Assembly (NCBI GenBank): GCA_905203475.1
Contig: CAJKWD010000002.1
Span: 1,658 to 65,657, forward strand
DNA: 64,000 nucleotides
Source: an uncultured Acholeplasmataceae bacterium
GTDB lineage: Bacteria; Bacillota_I; Bacilli_A; RF39; UBA660
Direction: 5' to 3'
Position numbers and translations under genes: made by a program. Below are positions 15,820 to 43,745 of this stretch, piece after piece; position 1 is the stretch's first letter; each line of letters starts with the position of its first letter. The notes under the pieces were generated by a model. The model saw nothing but the letters and a program-made list of their open reading frames with translations, was not told where the DNA came from and made no database searches.

Positions 15820-16602
15820 ATGAAAGTATATCTTGATCTTGTTTTTTTTATTAACTTTGGGTTTGATTTTATTCTTTTATTAAGTGTTTCTTATCTTTTA
15901 AAAAGAGGAAGTACAATTTTTTCTTGTATCAAAGGCGCTTTGGTAGGAGCACTATCCATTTTCTTTTTGTTTTTACCCTTAAACTCTTTTTCTTTATTTC
16001 TATTAAAAGGATTGGTTAGTGTTGTGATGATACTTGTAACATTTCATTATCAAAATAAACGCTATTTTATCAAAAATATGGTTTACTTATATTTAAATAG
16101 TATTGTCTTAGGTGGAGGGCTTTATTTTCTAAATGTACAATTTGCTATGAAGCAAAAGGGACTTATATTTTTTCACAATGGTGTTTCTTTGAATGTATGG
16201 TTGCTATTCATCTTATCGCCTATGATTCTTTATTTGTACTTAAAACAATTAAAGCAATTAAAAGTAAATTACGCATCGTATTATCAAGTATCATTTGTAT
16301 GGAAGAAAAAGAAATATCAAATGACTGCTTTTTTAGATACAGGAAATCAGATACAAGATCCGTATTTTAAGCGTCCAGTATTACTCATTAGTCCCAATGT
16401 TTTAAAAAACAAGATACAGTCACCAATTTATATTCCATACCATGCAGTCGGAAAAGATGGTATGCTTTCCTGTTTTTTATTAGATAGTATTCATATTGAA
16501 GGGGTAGGTGATCGTAAGAAAGTATTAGTAGGAATATTAGACGATAAAATAAGAATGGATGGAATAGAGATGATATTAGGAACAAAAGTATTGGAGGGTT
16601 AA
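15820..16602 (+). CDS. spoIIGA: Sigma-E processing aspartic peptidase SpoIIGA
   Basis: Five N-terminal TM segments, the FLDTGNQ active-site motif, and a position immediately upstream of sigE. Confidence 0.92.
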   Translation: MKVYLDLVFFINFGFDFILLLSVSYLLKRGSTIFSCIKGALVGALSIFFLFLPLNSFSLFLLKGLVSVVMILVTFHYQNKRYFIKNMVYLYLNSIVLGGGLYFLNVQFAMKQKGLIFFHNGVSLNVWLLFILSPMILYLYLKQLKQLKVNYASYYQVSFVWKKKKYQMTAFLDTGNQIQDPYFKRPVLLISPNVLKNKIQSPIYIPYHAVGKDGMLSCFLLDSIHIEGVGDRKKVLVGILDDKIRMDGIEMILGTKVLEG

Positions 16603-17295
16603 ATGTTAAAGAGAATATGGAATTTTTTAAAACAATTATTATGGGATGAGTATAATTTATTTTTTGTTGGAAGTAGTGATAAATTACCAGAACCATTATC
16701 TAGGGAAGAAGAAACAAAATACGTAGAACTTTCTATGCAAGGAGATGAAAAAGCACGGGCAAAATTAATTGAACATAATTTAAGATTGGTTGTATTCTTA
16801 TCAAAAAAATATGAAAATACAGGAATCGATTTAGAAGATTTAGTAAGTATTGGGACTATTGGATTAATTAAAGGAGTCAATACTTATAAACTAGATAAGA
16901 ATATTAAATTAGCAACCTATGCTTCTAGATGTATTGATAATGAAATTTTAATGTATTTAAGAAAAAATAAAAAGAGAAGGACAGAAATTAGTTTTGAAGA
17001 CAGTTTAAGTTATGATGGAGAAGGAAATGAGTTACATTTAGAAGATGTTTTAGGAACAGATGCGGACATTGTTACGAAAGGATTAGAAGAAGAAACAGAG
17101 AAGAAATTGTTATATCAAGAAATTGCTAAATTAAAGGGTAGAGATAAAGAAATTATGATATTAAGATATGGGTTATTTGGACAAAAAGAAAAGACTCAAA
17201 AAGAAGTAGCTACTATGTTAAATATTAGTCAATCATATATTTCTCGTATTGAAAAGAAAGTAATCAAACACTTAAAAGGAACGGTACAATCATAG
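16603..17295 (+). CDS. sigE: Sporulation sigma factor E (pro-sigma-E)
   Basis: Pro-sequence followed by LPEPLSREEE, NLRLVVFLSKKY, IGTIGLIKGVNTY and ISQSYISRIEKK. Confidence 0.95.
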   Translation: MLKRIWNFLKQLLWDEYNLFFVGSSDKLPEPLSREEETKYVELSMQGDEKARAKLIEHNLRLVVFLSKKYENTGIDLEDLVSIGTIGLIKGVNTYKLDKNIKLATYASRCIDNEILMYLRKNKKRRTEISFEDSLSYDGEGNELHLEDVLGTDADIVTKGLEEETEKKLLYQEIAKLKGRDKEIMILRYGLFGQKEKTQKEVATMLNISQSYISRIEKKVIKHLKGTVQS

Positions 17296-17350: not shown

Positions 17351-19198
17351 ATGAGACGTAAAAAGAAGAAAACAGTTGAGAAATTTACTTATGAGAAAAC
17401 CAAAAAAAGAGAAAAATTTACAAAAGTAGATTGGGTTTGTCTAAGTATTATTGTGATTATTTTTGCTATTTTCGCATTTTCTCATTTAGGAACGACGAAG
17501 ATGGCTAATACGTATTGGAAGCCAGATATGAGTGGTGATTCTGTTATATTAGATATTGGTGATGCAGAAATAGACGCTATTTATTATTTAGTAGGAGTTG
17601 GAAATGATCCTTATGGAAATGTAGCTGATTTAAAAGATGTTAACTTTGAAATAGAAGCATCTGCTGATCAAATCAATTGGAAACCAGTCTCTTTAATTAA
17701 TGATATATCAATGTATAGTTGGACAGAAATACCTGTTTCTATTATTGGAAATCGCTATATACGAATACGAGGCTATCATACCGCAGTGGTAATGAATGAA
17801 ATTGGATTTAAAATAGCTGGTAAACAAAAACTGGCACAAGTAAAATACGTCGATGGAACAAGTTATTCCTATACAGGGAAAGAATTAATTGATGAACAAG
17901 ATAAAATATCATTGAATCCATCTTATTATGATTCCACTTATTTTGATGAGATATATCATGCGAGAACTGCTTATGAACAATTAAAAGGGTATCCAATTTA
18001 TGAGAATACACACCCAGTCTTAGGAAAAGAAATAATATCAATTGGGATTGCTATATTTGGTATGAATCCATTTGGATGGAGAGTAGCAGGTGTTGTCTTT
18101 GGTATTCTCATGTTACCAATCTTATATGAATTTTTAAAACAAATATTTAAAAAACCAATTATTTGTTTTATTGGCACTTTTCTCTTTGCCTTTGATTTTA
18201 TGCATTTTACTCAATCTAGAATTGCTACCATTGATACTTATGCCGTTATATTTACAATACTGATTTACTATTTCATGTATCGTTATTATCGGACGAGTTT
18301 TTACGATACTGATTTAAAGAAAACGTATAAACCATTGTTATGGTGTGGAATCTTTGTTGGAATTGGGTTTGCTAGTAAATGGAATGTTGCCTATGGCTTT
18401 ATTGGAATTGCTGTCTTGTTCTTTATGAATATCTATCGTCGTTATAAAGAATATATACATGCCAAAGAAATGGTCACAGTAAAGCATTCAACAGATGAAA
18501 TGGATCAACACGTATATGAAAGTTTTATTCCTAACTTAAAAAAGACAATTCTTCGTTGTATTTTATACTTTGTAATTATTCCATTATTGATTTATTATCT
18601 TTCTTTTATATTTATTTATGATATAACAAATATTGTCCAGTATACAAAAGATGTCATTGATTACAATGTTCATATGTTTCAATATCATAATGATTTAGTT
18701 GCTTCACATCCATATCAGTCTGCTTGGTATGAGTGGCCATTGATCATACGTCCAATTTGGTATGCATGGAATGAATCAACTGTTCAAATGGGAGCGGTAA
18801 GTAGTATTTCTGCCTTTGGAAATCCATTTGTATGGTGGGGTGGATTGATTGCTATGATAATTACTTTGATATTTGCCATCAAAAAGAAAGATAAAATTGC
18901 TTGGTTTATCGTTATCGGTTATCTCTCTGTTTATCTACCGTGGGTTTATATCACCAGAATTACATTTATTTATCACTATTATCCAGCTGTTATTTTCTTA
19001 GTTCTAGCACTTGCATATATTGCAAATAAAATAGTAGAAAAATGGAAATGGGGTAAACAATGTATTCTAATTTATGCGTCATTATCATTTATTTGTTTTA
19101 TATACTTTTATCCAATTTTATCAGGAAGTTGGACGACGAGAGAATATTTAAAACAATTACAGTGGTTTCCAACATGGACTTTTATGACAGGTGATTGA
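17351..19198 (+). CDS. GT-C fold, PMT/GT39-like polyprenol-phosphate-sugar protein glycosyltransferase with a discoidin-like loop insertion
   Basis: YFDEIYHARTAYE...YENTHPVLGKE..GI..FGMNPFGWR (the loop-1 DE motif of the PMT family). More than 10 TM segments. C-terminal HPYQSAWYEWPL. Residues ~55-160 resemble an F5/8 type C domain (FEIEASADQINWKPV...NRYIRIRG). Confidence 0.75.
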   Translation: MRRKKKKTVEKFTYEKTKKREKFTKVDWVCLSIIVIIFAIFAFSHLGTTKMANTYWKPDMSGDSVILDIGDAEIDAIYYLVGVGNDPYGNVADLKDVNFEIEASADQINWKPVSLINDISMYSWTEIPVSIIGNRYIRIRGYHTAVVMNEIGFKIAGKQKLAQVKYVDGTSYSYTGKELIDEQDKISLNPSYYDSTYFDEIYHARTAYEQLKGYPIYENTHPVLGKEIISIGIAIFGMNPFGWRVAGVVFGILMLPILYEFLKQIFKKPIICFIGTFLFAFDFMHFTQSRIATIDTYAVIFTILIYYFMYRYYRTSFYDTDLKKTYKPLLWCGIFVGIGFASKWNVAYGFIGIAVLFFMNIYRRYKEYIHAKEMVTVKHSTDEMDQHVYESFIPNLKKTILRCILYFVIIPLLIYYLSFIFIYDITNIVQYTKDVIDYNVHMFQYHNDLVASHPYQSAWYEWPLIIRPIWYAWNESTVQMGAVSSISAFGNPFVWWGGLIAMIITLIFAIKKKDKIAWFIVIGYLSVYLPWVYITRITFIYHYYPAVIFLVLALAYIANKIVEKWKWGKQCILIYASLSFICFIYFYPILSGSWTTREYLKQLQWFPTWTFMTGD

Positions 19199-19214
19199 TT
19201 CACCTGTTTTTATT
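19187..19214 (+). terminator. Rho-independent terminator
   Basis: acaggtga-ttgat-tcacctgt perfect 8-bp stem followed by TTTTaTT. Confidence 0.8.
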
Positions 19215-19241
19215 GCGATAAATGTGTAAAGATGATACAAT
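19213..19241 (+). promoter_or_regulatory. Sigma-A promoter of pilin-like gene 1 (TTGCGA-17-TACAAT, TG-extended)
   Basis: -35 at 19213-19218 and -10 at 19236-19241. Confidence 0.5.
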
Positions 19242-19266
19242 AAAAGTATCATAGGGAGTGGTTAAG

Positions 19267-20997
19267 GTGAAGATGTCAAAGAAAGCATTTACTTTAATTG
19301 AGTTAATTGGAGTAATTGCTGTTCTAGCGGTTATTTTACTTGTGGCATTACCTTCATTGACGAGAACATTACGTAATAATGCAAATCAGCAATATGAAAG
19401 TGTATTGAGTGATATTTTTTTAGCAGCAGAACAGTATACTTTAATAAATAAAGCGCAATTTCCTCAACTGGAAACACCAGGAGGAAGAGCTACTGTTACA
19501 ATTAAAGAATTAAAAGAAGCAGGTTATTTAAGTCAGAATTTAGAAAATCCAAAAACAGGAGAGAAGTTTCTAGACACAGATTATGTATTAATTGAAATAA
19601 ATAATGATTATACTAGAAATTACAAATTTAATGAAGGAGAAGCAACTGCAAGTCCTGATGCTACCGCACCTACTTATGCAGTAAATCCAGGAGCAGCAGT
19701 ATGGACCAATCAAGGCAAAACAGTAACTATTCATTATCCTGATGTTAGTAAAAACAGATATATATTTGAATATTCTCTAGATGGCGGAATCCATTGGACA
19801 ATAACACAAGAATTAAATACCGAAATATGGTTTTCTGAAAATGGTTCTATTATCGCACGAGTAAGAGATTCATATAATGAACGAGATAATTTAAATGGAG
19901 GAGTATTTAATGTAACAAGAATTGATAAGATACCCCCAACTTGTGTATCATCAGGAGGAAGTACTGAATGGACAAATGGTACAAGAAAGATTATTGGAGT
20001 ATGTAGTGATACAGGTGGATCCGGATGCAAAGGTAATATTTCATATACATATAATGCTGCAGAAAATACCAATTGGAATATTAATAACGCAGGACCAGCA
20101 GGAGCAGGACAGGCAGGGACTGTTTATGATAATGCTGGAAATAGTGCTCCATGTCAGGCCAATCAATCGATTCGTTTAGATCGAAAAAAACCAACATGTA
20201 CAAGTAGTGGTGGTAACTCTAATTGGGTAATAGGAGGATCTGTTAAATTAACTGGTACATGTAATGATGATGGCTCAGGATGTAAGGGAAATGTTACTAA
20301 GACGTTTTATCCAGAAACAGATACATCAACTGCATCTCCAGGAACTGTATATGATAAAGCTGGAAACAGTACAGTTTGCCCAGCCAACCAACATGTTCAT
20401 GTTACGAATAAATTAGATGCCCCAATTATTACGAATCCGACTGGAGGAAATTGGGTAAACTACAGTTATGCATTAACAGTAAAAACACCAAATAATAAAG
20501 TGAATGTCGCCTACTGGCAATGGCGATATGCAAACACGAGTTGGGCGACATATTCAAATTCCGCTAAAAACACATTTACAACTACTCAATACACAACAGA
20601 ACGTAATGAAGCAACATATATTCGTTATTGTATATCAAGTGGCCAATGTTCTTCTGAAGCGTCTACAATGATTCGTATTGATAAAACACCACCATATTGG
20701 AGAGTTGCAATGCATGCGGGAGGATACCATTATTCAGATGGATCTTATCAACCTTTTACCTGCTATGCGAAAATTGATATATATGATTCTGCTTCAGGAT
20801 TAGAAGGTATATATAATTTAGTTGGAAATTCTGGATCAATTATGATGGAACATGGTCCATTATATGGTGCTGCGGCAACAGGACCAGATGGATTTGTTAT
20901 GGGAAGCTTTGGTGCTTATTATGCATATTATGGATTCTCAGTTTGTGATATGGTAGGAAATTGTGCGAATCAACCAAGAGTTGCTGGATATTGTTAG
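19267..20997 (+). CDS. Large modular type IV pilin-like protein 1 (prepilin N-terminal cleavage/methylation domain plus 4-Cys modules)
   Basis: KKA|FTLIELIGVIAVLAVILL class III signal with Glu+5. A small pilin head is followed by two D..(P)PTC...GSGCKG...D(N/K)AGNS..C modules. The start is ambiguous (GTG 19258, GTG 19267 or ATG 19273); GGGAG RBS at 19254-19258. Confidence 0.85.
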   Translation: MKMSKKAFTLIELIGVIAVLAVILLVALPSLTRTLRNNANQQYESVLSDIFLAAEQYTLINKAQFPQLETPGGRATVTIKELKEAGYLSQNLENPKTGEKFLDTDYVLIEINNDYTRNYKFNEGEATASPDATAPTYAVNPGAAVWTNQGKTVTIHYPDVSKNRYIFEYSLDGGIHWTITQELNTEIWFSENGSIIARVRDSYNERDNLNGGVFNVTRIDKIPPTCVSSGGSTEWTNGTRKIIGVCSDTGGSGCKGNISYTYNAAENTNWNINNAGPAGAGQAGTVYDNAGNSAPCQANQSIRLDRKKPTCTSSGGNSNWVIGGSVKLTGTCNDDGSGCKGNVTKTFYPETDTSTASPGTVYDKAGNSTVCPANQHVHVTNKLDAPIITNPTGGNWVNYSYALTVKTPNNKVNVAYWQWRYANTSWATYSNSAKNTFTTTQYTTERNEATYIRYCISSGQCSSEASTMIRIDKTPPYWRVAMHAGGYHYSDGSYQPFTCYAKIDIYDSASGLEGIYNLVGNSGSIMMEHGPLYGAAATGPDGFVMGSFGAYYAYYGFSVCDMVGNCANQPRVAGYC

Positions 20998-20999
20998 AA

Positions 21000-21027
21000 A
21001 GGGAGAAATTTCTCGCCTTTTAATTAG
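21000..21027 (+). terminator. Imperfect hairpin followed by TTTT
   Basis: aaaggGAGAaattTCTCgccttt. Confidence 0.45.
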
Positions 21028-21061
21028 CATATAGTAAATTTCATGCATTGTATTTTCCTGC

Positions 21062-21090
21062 TTGAAAACATGTGAAAAGTATTGTAAAAT
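21062..21090 (+). promoter_or_regulatory. Sigma-A promoter of pilin-like gene 2 (TTGAAA-17-TAAAAT)
   Basis: -35 at 21062-21067 and -10 at 21085-21090. Confidence 0.5.
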
Positions 21091-21130
21091 TGTTATATGA
21101 ACATAAGAGATTATATACAGGAGGTTATAT

Positions 21131-22918
21131 ATGAGCAGTGAGATGCGATTGAAAAAGGGTTTTACATTAATTGAATTAATTGGAGTAATTGCTGTTTTAG
21201 CAGTTATTTTATTGATAGCACTTCCAACGATTACAAGCTCTGTTCGTCGTAATAATGAGCAAAAATACGCAAATACATTACAAGACATTTATTTAGCTGC
21301 AGAACAGTATACCCTAACTTATAAGGAAAAATTTCCTCAGTTAGATGAATCGGGTGGACGTGTAAAAGTTACGATAGCCGATTTGAAAGAAGCAGGTTAT
21401 TTAGATCAGCATTTAGAAAATCCTAAAACGGGGAAAGAATTTCTAGATACAGATTATGTATTAGTAGAAGTAGATAAAGATTATACAAGAAAATATAAAT
21501 TTAATGAAGGAGAAGAAACAAAAACCCCAGATACTACAGCACCTACTTATACTGTAAATCCAGGTGCAACTGTATGGACGAACAAAGGGAAGACAGTAAC
21601 GATTCATTACCCTAATGTCAGTAAAAATAGATATGTATTTGAATATTCTTTAGATGGTGGTGTCCACTGGATTGTAACCCAAGAATTAAATACAAATGTA
21701 TGGTTTGCCGATAATGGCAATATTATCGCAAGAGTTAGGGATACATACAACGAGCGCGAAAGCCTCAATGGAGGAGTATTTAATGTAACAAAAATTGATA
21801 AAATTCCACCAACATGTAAGAGTTCTGGAGGAAGTAATGATTGGACTGGGGGCTCAAGAACAATTACAGGAATATGTAGCGATACTGGTGGTTCTGGTTG
21901 CAAAGGGAACATCTCTTATACATATAATGGAACTACAGGAGAAAATTACAGTATTACCAATGCCGGACCAGCTGGAGTTGGAAAAGCGGGTGTTGTTTAT
22001 GATAATGCTGGAAATAGTGCTACTTGTCAGGCCAATCAAACAGTAAAGATTGATAAGAAAGCACCGACTTGTACGACAAGTAAGAAAGTAAATACAAGTT
22101 CTGTAACAATTACTGGAACTTGTAGTGATACAGGTGGCTCTGGATGTAAAGGAAATGCCACTAAAACCGTAACTGCTAATGGAAGTTATTCACCAGGTAG
22201 TGTTTCTGATAATGTTGGTCATACTACTACTTGTCCATCGACAAATGTAACGGAAGTAGATAAAACACCGCCAAATTGTCCAACTGTTACAGCAGACCAT
22301 ACAGCCAATAAATGGACAAAAGATAATGTGGTATTAACAATTACCCCAACAAGTGATACGAAAAGTTGGGATTGGTATAGAGGAGAAGGAAACGGAACAT
22401 ATACCTATGTTGATAACAATACTGGAAAGAAAACCAAAACATTATCTAATTCCGGAAAAATATCTGGACAAATCGTCGTTCGTGATGCTGCAGGAAATAG
22501 CCGTACATGTTTTACATCTAGTTATTGGATTGATAAAGTAAAACCATTATCACCAAAATATTCTAGTATTGAGATATCTGGAGGAACCGTGACATCAAAT
22601 GATTGTGGAGGAAAAGGTGGAACAGCGTCTGATGTAAGTTGTACCATTAATATTAGAGGAAGAAGATATAGTGCAGTTAGTTTTGAATTTAATACAGTTG
22701 AAAAAGATCAACATTCAGGAGTAAGTTATTCACAATATAAATGGAATCACAATGGAAGTGGAACAAAATGTCCAAACTGGTTTACAGGAGATTGTGGAGA
22801 TTGGAAGGCTGGAGTTGGAGGAACATTTACATATACGGATTTCGCATGGCGAAGTGTAGATAACGTTGGAAATGCAGGATATGCATTAAATATTAGAGTT
22901 AATTTTACATGGTATTAA
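21131..22918 (+). CDS. Large modular type IV pilin-like protein 2
   Basis: MSSEMRLKKG|FTLIELIGVIAVLA. The N-terminal ~330 aa are homologous to protein 1. The C-terminal ~322 aa are identical to protein 3. Confidence 0.9.
   Translation: MSSEMRLKKGFTLIELIGVIAVLAVILLIALPTITSSVRRNNEQKYANTLQDIYLAAEQYTLTYKEKFPQLDESGGRVKVTIADLKEAGYLDQHLENPKTGKEFLDTDYVLVEVDKDYTRKYKFNEGEETKTPDTTAPTYTVNPGATVWTNKGKTVTIHYPNVSKNRYVFEYSLDGGVHWIVTQELNTNVWFADNGNIIARVRDTYNERESLNGGVFNVTKIDKIPPTCKSSGGSNDWTGGSRTITGICSDTGGSGCKGNISYTYNGTTGENYSITNAGPAGVGKAGVVYDNAGNSATCQANQTVKIDKKAPTCTTSKKVNTSSVTITGTCSDTGGSGCKGNATKTVTANGSYSPGSVSDNVGHTTTCPSTNVTEVDKTPPNCPTVTADHTANKWTKDNVVLTITPTSDTKSWDWYRGEGNGTYTYVDNNTGKKTKTLSNSGKISGQIVVRDAAGNSRTCFTSSYWIDKVKPLSPKYSSIEISGGTVTSNDCGGKGGTASDVSCTINIRGRRYSAVSFEFNTVEKDQHSGVSYSQYKWNHNGSGTKCPNWFTGDCGDWKAGVGGTFTYTDFAWRSVDNVGNAGYALNIRVNFTWY
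21950..22917 (+). repeat. 968-bp direct repeat, copy A (3' end of pilin-like gene 2)
   Basis: Reading both copies side by side, I found no mismatch to 25637-26604 (offset 3687). Identity ends at the third base of the stop codon (TAA versus TAG). Confidence 0.9.
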
Positions 22919-22965
22919 AATCATCAATCGTAAATACTAAGAAAAATGCCAACTTACAATTGCAA

Positions 22966-22990
22966 CCGCACCAAAATGGTGCGGCTTTTT
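22966..22990 (+). terminator. Rho-independent terminator between gene 2 and convergent sigG
   Basis: ccgcacca-aaa-tggtgcgg followed by cTTTTT. Confidence 0.8.
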
Positions 22991-23003
22991 ATATATCTCA
23001 ATT

Positions 23004-23780
23004 TTATTGAATCATTTTTTTGATATGATCAATCCCAGATTTTTCTAATCGTGAGATTTGAGCTTGACTAATACCAATTTCTTCTGCCAATTCCATTTGT
23101 GTTTTACCAATAAAATATCTAGAAGTAAGAACATAGCGTTCTTTTTCTTTTAATTTTTGTAACGCATCATGTAAAGCAATTTTAGTTTCTAAAGAATAGT
23201 TCTTATTCTTTTTATCTTCTAATTGATCCTCTAAATAAATCGTATCTCCACCATCATTATAGATAGGTTCAAACATGGAAATCGCCTCTTTTAATGAATC
23301 TAAAGCGTTACTTACTTCATATTCTGATAGATTCAGTTCCTTCGCTACTTCTCTAATTGTAGGTTCTTTTCCTTGGATAGCAGTTAATTCTTCTTTTTTC
23401 TTTAATGCTTTATATGCAGTATCTTTGATACTTCTAGCAATCCTAACACTATTATTATCTCTCAGGTATCTTTTTACTTCACCTAGAATCATGGGTACAC
23501 TGTAGGTGGAAAATTTTACTTCATATGATAAATCAAAATGATCAATGGCTTTAATTAAACCAATACAACCAACTTGAAACAGATCATCCATGTTATCGAC
23601 ACGGTGATTAAATTTTTTTAAAACGCTTAACACGAGTTTTAAATTTCCTTGTATTAACTGATCCTTGGCAGATAAGTCACCTTGTTTTAATTTTTGAAAT
23701 AATTGAATCATTTCTTCATTAGTTAAAACTTTAATATTCGCAGTATTCACGCCACAAATTTCTACTTTGTGTCGTGCCAT
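23004..23780 (-). CDS. sigG: Sporulation sigma factor G
   Basis: MARHKVEICGVNT..., DLFQVGCIGLIKAIDHFD, KFSTYSVPMILGEVKRYLRDN, ISQAQISRLEK. AAGGAG RBS upstream of ATG 23780. The gene is on the opposite strand to spoIIGA-sigE. Confidence 0.93.
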   Translation of the reverse strand: MARHKVEICGVNTANIKVLTNEEMIQLFQKLKQGDLSAKDQLIQGNLKLVLSVLKKFNHRVDNMDDLFQVGCIGLIKAIDHFDLSYEVKFSTYSVPMILGEVKRYLRDNNSVRIARSIKDTAYKALKKKEELTAIQGKEPTIREVAKELNLSEYEVSNALDSLKEAISMFEPIYNDGGDTIYLEDQLEDKKNKNYSLETKIALHDALQKLKEKERYVLTSRYFIGKTQMELAEEIGISQAQISRLEKSGIDHIKKMIQ

Positions 23781-23847
23781 AAATAGCTCCTTTCTGTCTA
23801 TTAGAATATTGTACAAAAAAAGAGGGATTATACATCTATCTTGATAC

Positions 23848-23876
23848 TTGCAATATGTAGTGAAATATTATAAAAT
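23848..23876 (+). promoter_or_regulatory. Sigma-A promoter of pilin-like gene 3 (TTGCAA-17-TAAAAT)
   Basis: -35 at 23848-23853 and -10 at 23871-23876. Confidence 0.5.
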
Positions 23877-23902
23877 AAAAGATAGATAATAGGAGGCTAT
23901 GT

Positions 23903-26605
23903 ATGAGCAGTGGGATACGAATAAAAAAAGGATTTACATTAATTGAATTATTAGCTGTGATTGTAATTATTGCCGTGATTGCGTTGATCACATATCCAAC
24001 GGTTAATCGCGTAATTACCAATTCCAGGATGACAGCACTAAAAAATAGTGCTGAAGCATTATTGAAAGAAACAAATTTGCAAACAGCGATGGATAAAGTG
24101 GAAGGAAATACGCAAATTTTAATTACCGATGAAAGATTAAAATTAAAAAATAATCAATTTATTGGTGGTTTTATTTTTAAGAATGCAAATGGAAAATTAG
24201 AATTAAAAAATGTGACAAATGGATCATTTTGTATCAATGGAACAAGTGGAAATTTAAAAATTGAAAAAGGAAACTGTAGCTATTCAGATACTTCTGCCCC
24301 AACATTGACACTACAAACTGGATATATTGGTGCGACAGAAGCAATGGTACTTGCTAACGGATCTGATAATGAATCTGGCATTCGTGGATATGAATATAAA
24401 ATAGGGGATGGAAGTTATACTAAAGTATTAGGTAGTAATTTTTATCAATTTGAAGGATTAAAGAGAAATACAAGTTATAAAGTAACAGTCAGAGTCACAA
24501 ATGGAGCTGGTCTTACAACTGAAAAAAGCATTACATTTAAAACGAAAAGTATATCAGCAGCTACATTTATAGTGAGTGGTGCTTCAAAGTGGACAAATAA
24601 AAAAGATGTAACGATTAATTATCCAACCAGAGTAAGTGGCGTTACATATCGTTATAAAATAGGCAGTGGTAATTGGCAAGTACTTACGAGTGGTAAGAAA
24701 AAAGAGTTAGAAGTAAAAGAGAATACAACAATTTATGCAGAAGTGATATTAAATGGAGAAACAGTGAGTTCAAATGTTAGTATTACAAAAATAGATAATA
24801 CACCACCTGTTATTACAAGCATTAAACCAAATACAACATCTTGGGCACGTCAAGTAACGATTCAAGTCATTGCCACAGATACTCCATCTGGAATTGCTGG
24901 ATATTCATTTGACGATGGAGCAACATGGACAAGTGCCCCAACATATACTACAACTAAAAATGGAACTTATAAAATTAAAGTAAAAGATTATGCGAATAAC
25001 ATCGCAAGTGGGAAAATCACTATTAAAAATATCGATAGAACAGGACCTAAATGTGTTAGTAGTGGTGGAAGTAAGACGTGGACAAATCAATCGAGAACGA
25101 TTGTTGGTACTTGTATCGATGATGGAGAAGGTGCAGGATGTGTTTCCAAAACAGTTTCTAAGACAATTAGTACTGACGCTAATGCAACTATGTCACCAGG
25201 TGTTGTAAAAGATGAAGCAGGAAATGAAACAACATGTCCAGCTACTGAAGTTGTTAGAGTAGATAAAACAAAACCAACATGTACTGTATCCTTGAGTAAT
25301 ACAAATTGGACAAATAAAGCAGTTACTGCATATGGTAAGTGTCAAGATTCACTAAGTGGTTGTATAACAAATAATCTTAAGAAAGAATATACAACACAGA
25401 TGAATGATAAAGTAACTTTAGGTACAGTAAAAGATAAAGCTGGAAATGAGACAAATTGTACTTCTAGCCAAAATATCAAAATAGATACAACTCCTCCTAC
25501 TTGTACATCTTCTGGAGGAAGTACTGTTTGGACTAGTGGAACAAGAACAATTACCGGAGTATGTAATGATACTGGTGGTTCTGGATGTAAGGGTAATATT
25601 TCATATACATATAATGGAACTTCCGGTCAAAACTATAGTATTACCAATGCCGGACCAGCTGGAGTTGGAAAAGCGGGTGTTGTTTATGATAATGCTGGAA
25701 ATAGTGCTACTTGTCAGGCCAATCAAACAGTAAAGATTGATAAGAAAGCACCGACTTGTACGACAAGTAAGAAAGTAAATACAAGTTCTGTAACAATTAC
25801 TGGAACTTGTAGTGATACAGGTGGCTCTGGATGTAAAGGAAATGCCACTAAAACCGTAACTGCTAATGGAAGTTATTCACCAGGTAGTGTTTCTGATAAT
25901 GTTGGTCATACTACTACTTGTCCATCGACAAATGTAACGGAAGTAGATAAAACACCGCCAAATTGTCCAACTGTTACAGCAGACCATACAGCCAATAAAT
26001 GGACAAAAGATAATGTGGTATTAACAATTACCCCAACAAGTGATACGAAAAGTTGGGATTGGTATAGAGGAGAAGGAAACGGAACATATACCTATGTTGA
26101 TAACAATACTGGAAAGAAAACCAAAACATTATCTAATTCCGGAAAAATATCTGGACAAATCGTCGTTCGTGATGCTGCAGGAAATAGCCGTACATGTTTT
26201 ACATCTAGTTATTGGATTGATAAAGTAAAACCATTATCACCAAAATATTCTAGTATTGAGATATCTGGAGGAACCGTGACATCAAATGATTGTGGAGGAA
26301 AAGGTGGAACAGCGTCTGATGTAAGTTGTACCATTAATATTAGAGGAAGAAGATATAGTGCAGTTAGTTTTGAATTTAATACAGTTGAAAAAGATCAACA
26401 TTCAGGAGTAAGTTATTCACAATATAAATGGAATCACAATGGAAGTGGAACAAAATGTCCAAACTGGTTTACAGGAGATTGTGGAGATTGGAAGGCTGGA
26501 GTTGGAGGAACATTTACATATACGGATTTCGCATGGCGAAGTGTAGATAACGTTGGAAATGCAGGATATGCATTAAATATTAGAGTTAATTTTACATGGT
26601 ATTAG
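23903..26605 (+). CDS. Large modular type IV pilin-like protein 3 (900 aa)
   Basis: MSSGIRIKKG|FTLIELLAVIVIIAVIAL. Pilin head, then FN3/Ig-like modules (SGIRGYEYKIGDG.., SGIAGYSFDDGATW), four 4-Cys modules, and a C-terminus shared with protein 2. Confidence 0.9.
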   Translation: MSSGIRIKKGFTLIELLAVIVIIAVIALITYPTVNRVITNSRMTALKNSAEALLKETNLQTAMDKVEGNTQILITDERLKLKNNQFIGGFIFKNANGKLELKNVTNGSFCINGTSGNLKIEKGNCSYSDTSAPTLTLQTGYIGATEAMVLANGSDNESGIRGYEYKIGDGSYTKVLGSNFYQFEGLKRNTSYKVTVRVTNGAGLTTEKSITFKTKSISAATFIVSGASKWTNKKDVTINYPTRVSGVTYRYKIGSGNWQVLTSGKKKELEVKENTTIYAEVILNGETVSSNVSITKIDNTPPVITSIKPNTTSWARQVTIQVIATDTPSGIAGYSFDDGATWTSAPTYTTTKNGTYKIKVKDYANNIASGKITIKNIDRTGPKCVSSGGSKTWTNQSRTIVGTCIDDGEGAGCVSKTVSKTISTDANATMSPGVVKDEAGNETTCPATEVVRVDKTKPTCTVSLSNTNWTNKAVTAYGKCQDSLSGCITNNLKKEYTTQMNDKVTLGTVKDKAGNETNCTSSQNIKIDTTPPTCTSSGGSTVWTSGTRTITGVCNDTGGSGCKGNISYTYNGTSGQNYSITNAGPAGVGKAGVVYDNAGNSATCQANQTVKIDKKAPTCTTSKKVNTSSVTITGTCSDTGGSGCKGNATKTVTANGSYSPGSVSDNVGHTTTCPSTNVTEVDKTPPNCPTVTADHTANKWTKDNVVLTITPTSDTKSWDWYRGEGNGTYTYVDNNTGKKTKTLSNSGKISGQIVVRDAAGNSRTCFTSSYWIDKVKPLSPKYSSIEISGGTVTSNDCGGKGGTASDVSCTINIRGRRYSAVSFEFNTVEKDQHSGVSYSQYKWNHNGSGTKCPNWFTGDCGDWKAGVGGTFTYTDFAWRSVDNVGNAGYALNIRVNFTWY
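25034..26218 (+). repeat. Tandem ~70-90-aa 4-Cys modules within gene 3
   Basis: Module starts are at 25034, 25262, 25484, 25739 and 25946. Each reads D..(P)P.C ... G.C.D..(S)GC ... D.AGN...C. Confidence 0.7.
25637..26604 (+). repeat. 968-bp direct repeat, copy B (3' end of pilin-like gene 3)
   Basis: See copy A. Confidence 0.9.
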
Positions 26606-42755: not shown

Positions 42756-43745
42756 ATGAGAAAAATTCGTAGAAGAAAAAATAGTGTGAGATCTATTATT
42801 ATCTTAAGTATGTTATGTTTTGTAACAATGGGGATTGGGTATAGTTATTTACAAGAAACTTTAAATGTACATGTTCAAGTCACAAAGAAAGATCAACGGA
42901 TAGATATTACCGAGGATGTTGTCACATCTGGAAGTGGATTATATCAAGATTCATACGAATATGGCAGATATGTTTATAGGGGAAATGAACCTAATAATTA
43001 TATTCAGTTTAATGATGAATTATGGAGAATTATAGCAAAAGAAACAGATGGAACTTACAAAATTGTTCACAATAGTTTGTCAGAGGAACGCGTATATGAT
43101 GAAACAGGCTATAGAGCGACAACTAATAACACATATTGTGATAAGCCTCAATATGGATGTAATATTTTTGGAAAAGTAAATGGTATTTTTACATCTGCTA
43201 ATAAAAGTGGTACTATTACACAAGATTCTAGTCTTGCCAGTTATTTAAATAGTACATATTATACAAAGCTAAGTAGTACTGCTCAAAATCTAATTCAAGT
43301 ACATAATTTTAATATTGGAAATGTGATTCATATGCCAAAGGCAGATAACGATAGTATTGCAAAAAATATTGAAGATGAGAAGGCGTACCAGTGGGAAGGC
43401 AAAGTAGGGCTCATAAATGTAACAGATTATTTGAGAGCGACTATAAATAATGAATGTAAGTCAGCGTCATATGATAATTCAACAAATGATGCGTGTACAT
43501 CTTATTTAGTGGAAGACTTAGATGTGAATCAACATTATTGGACTATGAATGGTTATTCTGGTGAAACAAGTGCTTCTTCTAATGCCGTTTGGTATGTCAG
43601 TCATTTTAGTTCCGGATTTCGTTTAAGAAATATCGTTGCTAATTCTGCTTCACGTTATGTTCGTCCAGTAGTTTATTTAAAAGCAGATATTCAATTTATA
43701 GATGGAAAGGGAACAGAAAGTGATCCATATATCATCACTTTATAA
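42756..43745 (+). CDS. Secreted lectin-like protein, paralog of the 1-1142 gene (non-diversified copy)
   Basis: N-terminal signal-anchor. ELWRIIAKETDGTYKIV, HYWTMNGYS, RYVRPVVYLK, GKGTESDPYIITL. AAGGAG RBS. Confidence 0.85.
   Translation: MRKIRRRKNSVRSIIILSMLCFVTMGIGYSYLQETLNVHVQVTKKDQRIDITEDVVTSGSGLYQDSYEYGRYVYRGNEPNNYIQFNDELWRIIAKETDGTYKIVHNSLSEERVYDETGYRATTNNTYCDKPQYGCNIFGKVNGIFTSANKSGTITQDSSLASYLNSTYYTKLSSTAQNLIQVHNFNIGNVIHMPKADNDSIAKNIEDEKAYQWEGKVGLINVTDYLRATINNECKSASYDNSTNDACTSYLVEDLDVNQHYWTMNGYSGETSASSNAVWYVSHFSSGFRLRNIVANSASRYVRPVVYLKADIQFIDGKGTESDPYIITL

Follow-up and report, generated by a model that had tools for sequence, protein, structure and literature searches.

Three modular type IV pilin-like proteins with Ig-like stalks and a recurrent four-cysteine module in an uncultured gut member of the Bacilli

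A stretch of 64,000 nucleotides from the genome of an uncultured Acholeplasmataceae bacterium (assembly GCA_905203475.1, contig CAJKWD010000002.1; hereafter the window) contains three intact genes whose products (proteins 1, 2 and 3) combine a predicted type IV pilin N-terminus with a long stalk of immunoglobulin (Ig)-like domains, among them repeated copies of a module with four cysteines (4-Cys module). Based on sequence comparisons and structural models, we are inclined to regard these as genes for modular, adhesin-type type IV pilin-like proteins of the minor or tip kind, a reading that we hold with moderate confidence. At the level of sequence, the three predicted proteins possess all of the features by which type IV pilins are recognised. 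By the definition of Raynaud et al. 2021 (PMC8179133), a modular pilin carries IPR012902/N_methyl at its N-terminus and at least one further domain with no specific tie to type IV pilus biology. The window's proteins fall within this definition, with N_methyl and DUF7743 both above threshold in protein 3 and five to nine Ig-like domains past the head in all three. The original prediction, made from the DNA alone, of three paralogous, very large modular type IV pilin-like proteins was thus borne out by hidden Markov model (HMM) matches, by comparison of a head profile with solved pilins and by AlphaFold2 models. The host comes from the human gut and is an uncultured representative of the Bacilli with a small genome. 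Proteins 1, 2 and 3 matched database proteins P0148 (574 amino acids), P0190 (595 amino acids) and P0146 (900 amino acids) at every residue, all from human-gut metagenome assemblies and the first from several independent ones; the three occur together on one NCBI contig of 66,693 bp. An exact look-up gave records for proteins 1 and 2 and none for protein 3. A scan of a genome collection with a single protein found two loci only, one in an 'uncultured Bacilli' metagenome-assembled genome (circular, 1,256,474 bp) and one in an 'uncultured Mycoplasmatota' metagenome-assembled genome. The G+C content of the window was about 31%.

When all six frames were scanned for class III motifs with a hydrophobic stretch behind them, exactly three sites were returned in the window, KKA/FTLIEL, KKG/FTLIEL and KKG/FTLIEL (the slash marks the cleavage position), in agreement with the prediction of class III signals in all three open reading frames (ORFs). 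Each protein exceeded the cut-off of 16.3 bits for TIGR02532, the NCBIfam model for prepilin-type cleavage and methylation (18.5, 24.1 and 33.3 bits for proteins 1, 2 and 3, respectively). The Pfam model N_methyl (PF07963, cut-off 21.2) was passed by proteins 2 (25.2) and 3 (28.7), with protein 1 narrowly below it (19.7). The motif was present in 207 of 226 retrieved homologues, the remainder being mostly N-terminally incomplete or with miscalled starts, and Phe at +1, Thr at +2 and Glu at +5 were invariant across 42 aligned members of the family. The possibility that the motifs are chance transmembrane segments was rejected on the basis of the HMM and profile E-values and of this conservation. 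Protein 1 has Ala at position -1, as had been pointed out, but this is a permitted and normal feature rather than an anomaly: the 207 motif-bearing homologues have Gly (179), Ala (27) or Ser (1) at this position, with Ala in all orthologues of protein 1, and the accepted prepilin motif is (A/G)X4(D/E), PilD cutting 'at a glycine or alanine' (PMC3244431). The predicted mature N-terminal N-methyl-Phe peptide of protein 1 would be FTLIELIGVIAVLAVILLVALPSLTR, a stretch in which proteins 2 and 3 differ. Upstream of gene 1, GGGAG precedes a GTG codon at 19267 that would give a seven-residue leader as in the orthologues (MKTNQKA/F); database gene callers took the ATG at 19273.

The head region following the signal was also pilin-like. 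A profile built from 20 diverse heads of the family matched helix alpha-1 of solved pilins and pseudopilins, 20 of them at E-values of 1e-5 or lower, including Geopilin (1.8e-14), Streptococcus sanguinis PilE1 (1e-11), gonococcal pilin (5e-8), GspG (7e-8) and PpdD (8e-6). In the AlphaFold2 model of protein 2, which rests on a 42-sequence alignment, a single helix of 51 residues (13-63) is followed by strands 77-81, 109-114 and 120-124 and a short helix (predicted local distance difference test score, pLDDT, 72-90), giving overall a pilin-like 'lollipop'; all domains beyond the head are beta domains. The head of protein 3 contains Cys110 and Cys125 near its end (Cys-x14-Cys, window 24230-24277), an arrangement similar to the C-terminal loop that a disulfide closes in classical type IVa pilins, and no cysteine occurs in the heads of proteins 1 and 2. 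A head-only search identified a stand-alone pilin of 125 amino acids, P0416, that is 42% identical to the head of proteins 1 and 2; otherwise the search gave mostly frameshift fragments of giant pilin genes. The P0416 gene (L020 10001-10378; also L021 and L022) lies between gap and pgk in a glycolytic cluster of another spore former, with SASP and Spo0A genes nearby and no pilus assembly genes within 10 kb. The head type of proteins 1 and 2 therefore also occurs in a pilin of conventional size, and a pilin of this sort could serve as a major subunit.

The best NCBIfam equivalog matches of the three proteins were to ComGE and ComGC, and one explanation would be that they are minor pilins of a Com pseudopilus that serve DNA uptake and not adhesion. 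Bacilli typically carry a single com operon, and pilins may lie apart from it (PMC3244431). However, the matches covered alpha-1 only and reached at best 25-28 bits against cut-offs of 49-80 for the ComGC, ComGD, ComGE and ComGF equivalogs, the Ig stalk has no resemblance to known DNA-binding pilin modules, and three large, variable paralogues would suit surface interaction more than DNA capture. We therefore consider a role in DNA uptake improbable.

The stalk beyond the head consists of five to nine tandem Ig-like domains in all three proteins. An HMM made from the window's own copies of the 4-Cys module, together with a regular expression, located two, two and four canonical copies in proteins 1, 2 and 3, with one longer 2-Cys variant in each of proteins 2 and 3. 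The core motif measured 61-77 amino acids and the HMM envelopes 71-87 amino acids, so that the anticipated two to five copies of about 70-90 amino acids were found. Across 46 diverse 4-Cys copies, whose identity to the reference copy was 28-57%, the invariant positions were D3, P7 and the four cysteines, with W18, D31, S36, D62, G65 and N66 nearly invariant. The AlphaFold2 model of a single module from gene 3 was seven-stranded and all-beta (pLDDT 89.4); the best Foldseek matches of this model were nanobody-like Ig folds only (best E-value 0.1). The module profile matched no PDB sequence, and the module reached no NCBIfam or Pfam threshold, in line with the earlier remark that the full 4-Cys pattern was not recognised as a described family. 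DUF7743 (PF24893, 27 bits) was reached by none of the 46 copies, six being sub-threshold (best E-value 0.0013), and HYR (PF02494) at its gathering threshold likewise by none, four being sub-threshold (best E-value 0.0056). The best sub-threshold Pfam matches, DUF7743, HYR, Big_13 and Big_3_2, are all Ig-like families.

Despite this lack of a family assignment, the module does not represent a wholly new fold. Profile-profile comparison by hhalign aligned it with the DUF7743-type domains of the same proteins with 97.5% probability (E-value 5e-12, 63 columns), SGC standing in place of SG[ILV] and the 'YSFDGG-TW' hairpin being deleted. On this basis the 4-Cys module is, as judged from sequence profiles, a shortened, Cys-bearing offshoot of the Ig-like DUF7743 domain, and an independent new fold was rejected. 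The suggestion that the D.AGN...C ending recalls HYR/Ig-like adhesion domains was right as to Ig-like kinship, which runs through DUF7743, with HYR itself matching below threshold only. The suggested FN3/Ig-like segments fared similarly. DUF7743 passes its cut-off at residues 297-381 of protein 3, but the fn3 match (PF00041, cut-off 25) at residues 131-215 was sub-threshold (18.2 bits, E-value 0.003) and confined to profile positions 42-78. The same segment gave weak sequence matches to the collagenase chains 4jrw, 4aqo and 2y72 (E-values 0.02-0.04). The remaining segments past the head, including both types of C-terminal domain, were related to the same superfamily in an all-against-all hhalign comparison, which is partly circular, iterated profiles having merged. 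A Foldseek search with the full model of protein 2 retrieved tandem Ig/FN3 arrays, with the GhpA grappling hook at rank 1 (7e-9) and SiiE (2e-6) and the large adhesion protein extender 6xi3 (4e-6) among the better matches; eukaryotic receptor ectodomains occupied most of the other top ranks.

A search with the 4-Cys profile against 1.84 billion representatives gave 4,526 clusters at an E-value of 1e-3 or below, 2,065 at 1e-10 and 451 at 1e-30, with up to 37 matched stretches per protein. Among 132 new top representatives, a class III N-terminus was found in 75 of the 85 that contained at least one 4-Cys copy (four of the 75 were truncated by start-codon miscalls), as against 4 of the 47 with Cys-free or 2-Cys copies only (Fisher p = 2e-20). 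These 47 proteins are mostly of 1,400-5,000 amino acids and have Sec-type signal peptides. The distribution suggests that the 4-Cys form comes close to being a pilin-specific domain.

The pattern of cysteine loss points to a specific pairing. In 885 unique copies of the module, drawn from all retrieved proteins, the four cysteine columns read CCCC in 745, C--C in 57 and ---- in 27; C1 or C4 never occurred alone, and C2 and C3 were usually kept or lost jointly. This co-occurrence implies two disulfides per 4-Cys domain, C1-C4 and C2-C3. In the single-module model the first strand contains C1, and C4 comes directly ahead of the last strand; a C1-C4 bond would therefore mechanically short-circuit most of the domain. 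Firmicutes tend to avoid cysteines in exported proteins, to which such clamps, if real, would be an exception.

Taken together, these data suggest the following mechanism. In each protein a class III signal and a helix alpha-1 of about 50 residues lead into a small pilin head. Cleavage after Gly or Ala at -1, leaving Phe1...Glu5 as the mature N-terminus, would be the task of a prepilin peptidase with its gene elsewhere in the genome. As low-abundance subunits, minor and probably at the tip, the proteins would enter a Com- or Pil-type filament by way of alpha-1, or would at least be retained by it in the membrane. Past the head extends a rod of five to nine mutually related Ig-like beta-sandwiches, akin to the extenders of giant adhesins. 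In each 4-Cys domain the C1-C4 bond would link the first strand with the segment that leads up to the last one, with C2-C3 closing a short loop, and this clamp may stiffen the stalk and guard it against mechanical and proteolytic unfolding in the manner of the isopeptide bonds of sortase pili. The outermost C-terminal domains vary between paralogues and strains; these would be the likely ligand-binding ends, with the proteins acting as adhesins. Segments have been exchanged between paralogues, as seen in a 966-nucleotide block, in the 5' half common to genes 1 and 2, in swapped C-terminal domains and in module number between strains, and the exchange may serve surface variation. An adjacent PMT-family enzyme may O-glycosylate the Ser/Thr-rich stalk.

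Several observations weigh against a filament-associated adhesin. As had been predicted, no PilB-, PilC-, PilD- or PilM-type assembly genes were found in the 64 kb: no ORF of at least 100 amino acids matched T2SSE, T2SSF or Peptidase_A24, and the sole PilM_2 match was FtsA. None of the unannotated ORFs of the window encodes a polytopic membrane protein. Nor did family members in four other lineages (five with that of the window) have PilB/C/D-type genes in their 10-kb flanks. The pilin head was absent from the top 50 Foldseek matches of the full protein 2 model because Ig arrays dominate them, so that the case for the head fold is built on sequence and secondary structure. On a single subunit, a rod of as many as nine domains may fit at a filament tip only. 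Since domain 'Y', the C-terminal domain of proteins 2 and 3, was poorly modelled (pLDDT below 50 for residues 531-595 of protein 2), ligand binding by it is conjecture. The putative disulfides, furthermore, would require an extracytoplasmic oxidising system in an anaerobic Firmicute.

In the main rival explanation, the proteins would be membrane-anchored stalks and would not polymerise at all. The class III signal would provide a peptidase-dependent, sortase-independent anchor, with the Ig rod crossing a thin wall to display the distal domains, comparable to archaeal class III proteins that do not form filaments. The genes are orphans in all five lineages checked, and the two or three paralogues do not lie within a pilus operon. 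An Ig-like domain is about 4 nm long, and a rod of five to nine domains would at this nominal length measure about 20-35 nm and span the Gram-positive wall. Sortases have been reported to be lacking in the uncultured Bacilli orders RFN20 and ML615J-28 (PMC10868615); this is an indirect argument, resting on related orders. The strict conservation of Glu5, alpha-1 and the head, on the other hand, is expected of subunits that dock into a filament and would be needless for an anchor, and we regard a purely anchoring role as unlikely, if well worth considering. The orphan position is itself ordinary for pilin genes, which have been documented outside biosynthetic operons, including in clusters of several genes (PMC3244431). 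In the other lineages the family members are singletons or clusters of two to three among housekeeping genes, for example those for PNPase, LeuRS and GatCAB. The literature on RF39, RFN20 and similar orders was searched for pili or competence, with no specific result.

The three genes, whose coordinates are given in Table 1, are mosaics of one another. Genes 1 and 2 shared 77% nucleotide identity over the first 890 nucleotides. The last 1,131 nucleotides of genes 2 and 3 were 97% identical, and 966 of these were 100% identical, the identity ending at the stop codons. Proteins 2 and 3 do share a C-terminal domain, as had been noted, but the likeness goes beyond a domain to a block of identical DNA. 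The two 966-nucleotide copies form direct repeats around sigG and the 5' part of gene 3. Domain 'Y' was rare (eight retrieved proteins) and domain 'X', found in gene 1, common (80 proteins); in other species the orthologue of the 900-amino-acid type ends in domain 'X', so that C-terminal domains have been swapped between orthologues. In two other samples the second pilin had 680 amino acids and three 4-Cys modules (L017 9922-11964, L018 11859-13898), compared with 595 amino acids and two modules here; the left part of the locus in these samples was 99.7% and the right part 96.4% identical to the window. A sister species with a HiFi circular genome also has three pilin genes, of which the first and third share 1,428 nucleotides at 93.6%. 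Strong similarity between paralogues is therefore real and not just a short-read artefact; the perfect identity of the 966 nucleotides here could partly stem from assembly.

Recombination between the 966-nucleotide repeats would remove sigG. In the near-identical strain assembly L017, the gene for the 680-aa second pilin is followed directly by the 126-aa ORF that stands downstream of gene 3 in the window, with neither sigG nor a third pilin gene between them. This arrangement may be a real deletion or an assembly collapse, the two being indistinguishable, and several other assemblies break within the second pilin gene. In a long-read assembly of the sister species (L003 7325-9071), the first pilin gene, ftsA, the PMT gene and others are fragmented, probably through indel errors, and such fragments enter protein databases as short 'pilins' (for example P0411).

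Table 1. Features of the pilin-like locus. Positions are those of the window; the slash marks the prepilin cleavage position; aa, amino acids.
Feature	Position	Strand	Remarks
PMT-family (GT-C, GT39-like) membrane glycosyltransferase gene	17351..19198	+	Directly upstream of gene 1, after sigE
Sigma-70-like site, gene 1	19213-19241	+	Analogous to the site of gene 3
Pilin-like gene 1	19273..20997	+	Intact ORF; 574 aa from ATG 19273, 576 aa from GTG 19267, further possible start at 19258; leader MSKKA/F, helix alpha-1 and head to about aa 135, Cys-free Ig-like domain 136-217, two 4-Cys modules, two Ig-related C-terminal domains 'X'
Class III signal, gene 1	19273..19350	+	Basic leader, Ala -1, Phe +1, Glu +5, hydrophobic helix; MSKKA/FTLIELIGVIAVLAV
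4-Cys modules (two), gene 1	19918..20403	+	aa 216-302 and 301-377 (regular expression and HMM)
Hairpin and U-run	20992..21029	+	After gene 1; -12.4 kcal/mol, z -3.4; plausible intrinsic terminator
Sigma-70-like site, gene 2	21062-21090	+	Analogous to the site of gene 3
Pilin-like gene 2	21131..22918	+	Intact ORF, 595 aa; head and first Ig domain paralogous to gene 1, two 4-Cys modules, one 2-Cys variant, C-terminal domain 'Y'
Class III signal, gene 2	21131..21223	+	MSSEMRLKKG/FTLIEL; RLKKG/FTLIELIGVIAVLAV
4-Cys modules (two), gene 2	21791..22258	+	aa 221-307 and 306-376 (regular expression and HMM); pLDDT 92-95 in the full-length model
966-nucleotide identical block, copy 1	21950..22915	+	3' end of gene 2
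2-Cys variant module, gene 2	22259..22540	+	aa 377-470; longer, keeps first and last Cys only
GC-rich strong hairpin and T-run	22966..22984	+	Follows gene 2 and also faces the sigG 3' end; -14 kcal/mol, z -4.3
sigG	23004..23780	-	Between genes 2 and 3; NF006071 380 bits, cut-off 372
Sigma-70-like site, gene 3	23848..23876	+	TTGCAA-17-TAAAAT, upstream of gene 3
Pilin-like gene 3	23903..26605	+	Intact ORF, 900 aa; different head type, Cys-free Ig/FN3-like domains 131-215, 216-296 and 297-381 (DUF7743), four 4-Cys modules, one 2-Cys variant, domain 'Y'
Class III signal, gene 3	23903..23995	+	MSSGIRIKKG/FTLIEL; RIKKG/FTLIELLAVIVIIAV
Cys-free Ig-like domain, gene 3	24791..25045	+	aa 297-381; DUF7743 34.1 bits, cut-off 27; closest curated relative of the 4-Cys module
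4-Cys modules (four), gene 3	25028..25945	+	aa 376-453, 452-527, 526-612 and 611-681 (regular expression and HMM)
966-nucleotide identical block, copy 2	25637..26602	+	3' end of gene 3
2-Cys variant module, gene 3	25946..26227	+	aa 682-775; identical copy of the gene 2 variant
Membrane-anchored ORF, 126 aa	26629..27009	+	N-terminal anchor; 24 nucleotides past gene 3; own ribosome-binding site; no hairpin between

The locus lies among cell division and sporulation genes, in the order murB, divIB, ftsA, ftsZ, spoIIGA-like, sigE-like, PMT-family glycosyltransferase, gene 1, gene 2, sigG (opposite strand), gene 3 and the ORF for the 126-aa membrane protein, followed by genes for a PRC-barrel protein, a GT4 transferase, ApbE, LspA, RluD, a rhomboid protein and LexA. 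The usual spoIIGA-sigE-sigG operon is thus split (15820-17295, + strand; 23004-23780, - strand), sigG being inverted and 5.7 kb from sigE with the PMT gene and two pilin genes between. The SpoIIGA-like protein scored 129 bits, far below its NCBIfam cut-off of 209, and SigE 318 bits, slightly below its cut-off of 339. The original prediction had placed the trio in a sporulation locus; the genes do adjoin sigE and sigG, but this link is positional and lineage-specific only. It raises the question of whether the products are sporulation-specific proteins of the spore surface or spore appendages, made under the control of sporulation sigma factors. The order spoIIGA-sigE-PMT-pilin(s)-sigG-pilin is conserved in the lineage, the window also holds SpoVB-like, PdaB-like and PRC-barrel genes, and one distant family member adjoins a YutH spore-coat gene. 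However, members in other lineages sit among the housekeeping genes named above, the sequences upstream of the three genes look sigma-70-like, the hexamers of gene 3 being kept in the sister species, and searches of Pfam and NCBIfam gave no similarity to spore appendage or coat families. Type IV pilins also depend for their export on a peptidase and a Sec-competent membrane, a route that is not known from spore assembly. A spore-surface function is accordingly considered highly improbable.

The adjacent PMT-family gene was found at this place in all examined relatives of the lineage (L001-L004, L008-L013 and L017-L019) and did not adjoin family members in other lineages. Ser and Thr make up 18-24% of the stalk residues, compared with a background of 12%, and there is a precedent in the oligosaccharyltransferase TfpW, which arabinosylates Pseudomonas pilins (bioRxiv 10.1101/2020.04.19.049825). 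Based on this enrichment and this precedent, the PMT-family enzyme is a candidate pilin O-glycosyltransferase.

Each of the three genes had been predicted to have its own promoter and terminator. One promoter-like site was found upstream of each, and hairpins follow genes 1 and 2, but no terminator hairpin was detected after gene 3, where the next ORF begins 24 nucleotides away, and sigma-70-like sites in the region occurred at the level of chance (60 found, 59.1 expected from shuffled sequence), for which reason these promoters were rejected as evidence. Both hexamers of the gene 3 site are kept in the sister species, where the -35 hexamer is TTGAAA. The 126-aa ORF is probably co-transcribed with gene 3; it had no family match. 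Behind each of the downstream pilin genes of the sister species stands a gene for a protein of 242 or 252 amino acids with an N-terminal transmembrane anchor (L001 12743-13501 and 15299-16027). These two proteins are mutually paralogous (25% identity, E-value 1e-17) and unrelated to the product of the 126-aa ORF, and they too have no family match on record. Elsewhere in the window, ORFs of 329 (42756-43745, + strand) and 302 (234-1142, + strand) amino acids encode exported or membrane-anchored proteins, the former without a family match and the latter with a weak match to DUF6273 (E-value 5e-6); neither is pilin-like.

Modular pilins are thought to explain the functional range of simple type IV filaments, and the few that have been studied are all grafts of a single module. 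The family described here places a long, apparently disulfide-braced Ig stalk on a pilin head, and does so in uncultured gut bacteria with small genomes. Such proteins are at present annotated by a 25-residue N-terminal motif only, and the 4-Cys module merits a curated domain model. A wider proposal, which we put forward as speculative and rather doubtful, is that 'stalked pilins' marked by this module form a large unrecognised class and the main means of surface display in gut Bacilli with reduced genomes and possibly few sortases. They would be anchored or polymerised by their heads, would have two disulfides per domain and cassette-like exchange of segments, and might mediate the attachment to mucus or to other microbes that these auxotrophs need; as a further possibility, recombination of the 3' blocks around sigG might give rise to sporulation-negative variants.

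In comparison with known systems, the locus is a further example of the described class of modular pilins and not a new kind of system, the new element being the widespread, pilin-associated 4-Cys Ig-like module. That pilins with grafted modules were already known, as the original prediction stated, is amply documented: the class comprises more than 1,200 proteins in 264 architectures, including FN3-containing and multi-repeat ones, with many more predicted whose modules lack signatures (PMC8179133). S. sanguinis PilB and PilC are established as modular pilins that act as tip adhesins (PMC8179133, PMC9934059). With PilB (vWA) and PilC (lectin) the proteins of the window have in common a monoderm host, a class III signal, a small pilin module, modules grafted C-terminally and a proposed role as tip adhesins. 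They differ in having five to nine tandem Ig-like domains instead of one functional module, in containing neither vWA nor lectin domains and in being encoded outside a pil operon. The type IVb minor pilins CofB and TcpB, which are located at the filament tip, likewise have a pilin module followed by additional beta-rich domains (PMC8179133), but these are proteobacterial proteins encoded in a pilus operon, with one or two extra domains and without the 4-Cys repeat.

At the level of the domain, the 4-Cys module shares the D-x-T-x-P start, the D-x-AGN end and the all-beta sandwich with DUF7743 (PF24893), HYR, Big_3_2 and Big_13, and is set apart from them by its four invariant cysteines, the SGC motif, the loss of the hairpin and its near-confinement to proteins with prepilin N-termini. 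Giant adhesins and fibres such as Salmonella SiiE with its BIg repeats, the 6xi3 extender and Aureispira GhpA similarly consist of long tandem-Ig rods that project a distal binding region. Such rods, where studied, are rigidified by Ca2+ and are anchored or secreted by other means, including type I secretion, whereas the proteins of the window would be anchored by a pilin head and braced by disulfides. In the pilins assembled by sortases (for example Spy0128), Ig-like domains are cross-linked between early and late strands by isopeptide bonds and resist force and proteases. There is no homology between these and the 4-Cys proteins, which would rely on type IV machinery instead of sortase and on putative disulfides instead of isopeptide bonds; the analogy is one of mechanism only. 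If the disulfide clamps are real, they would be the counterpart, in a type IV filament, of the isopeptide-locked domains of sortase pili.

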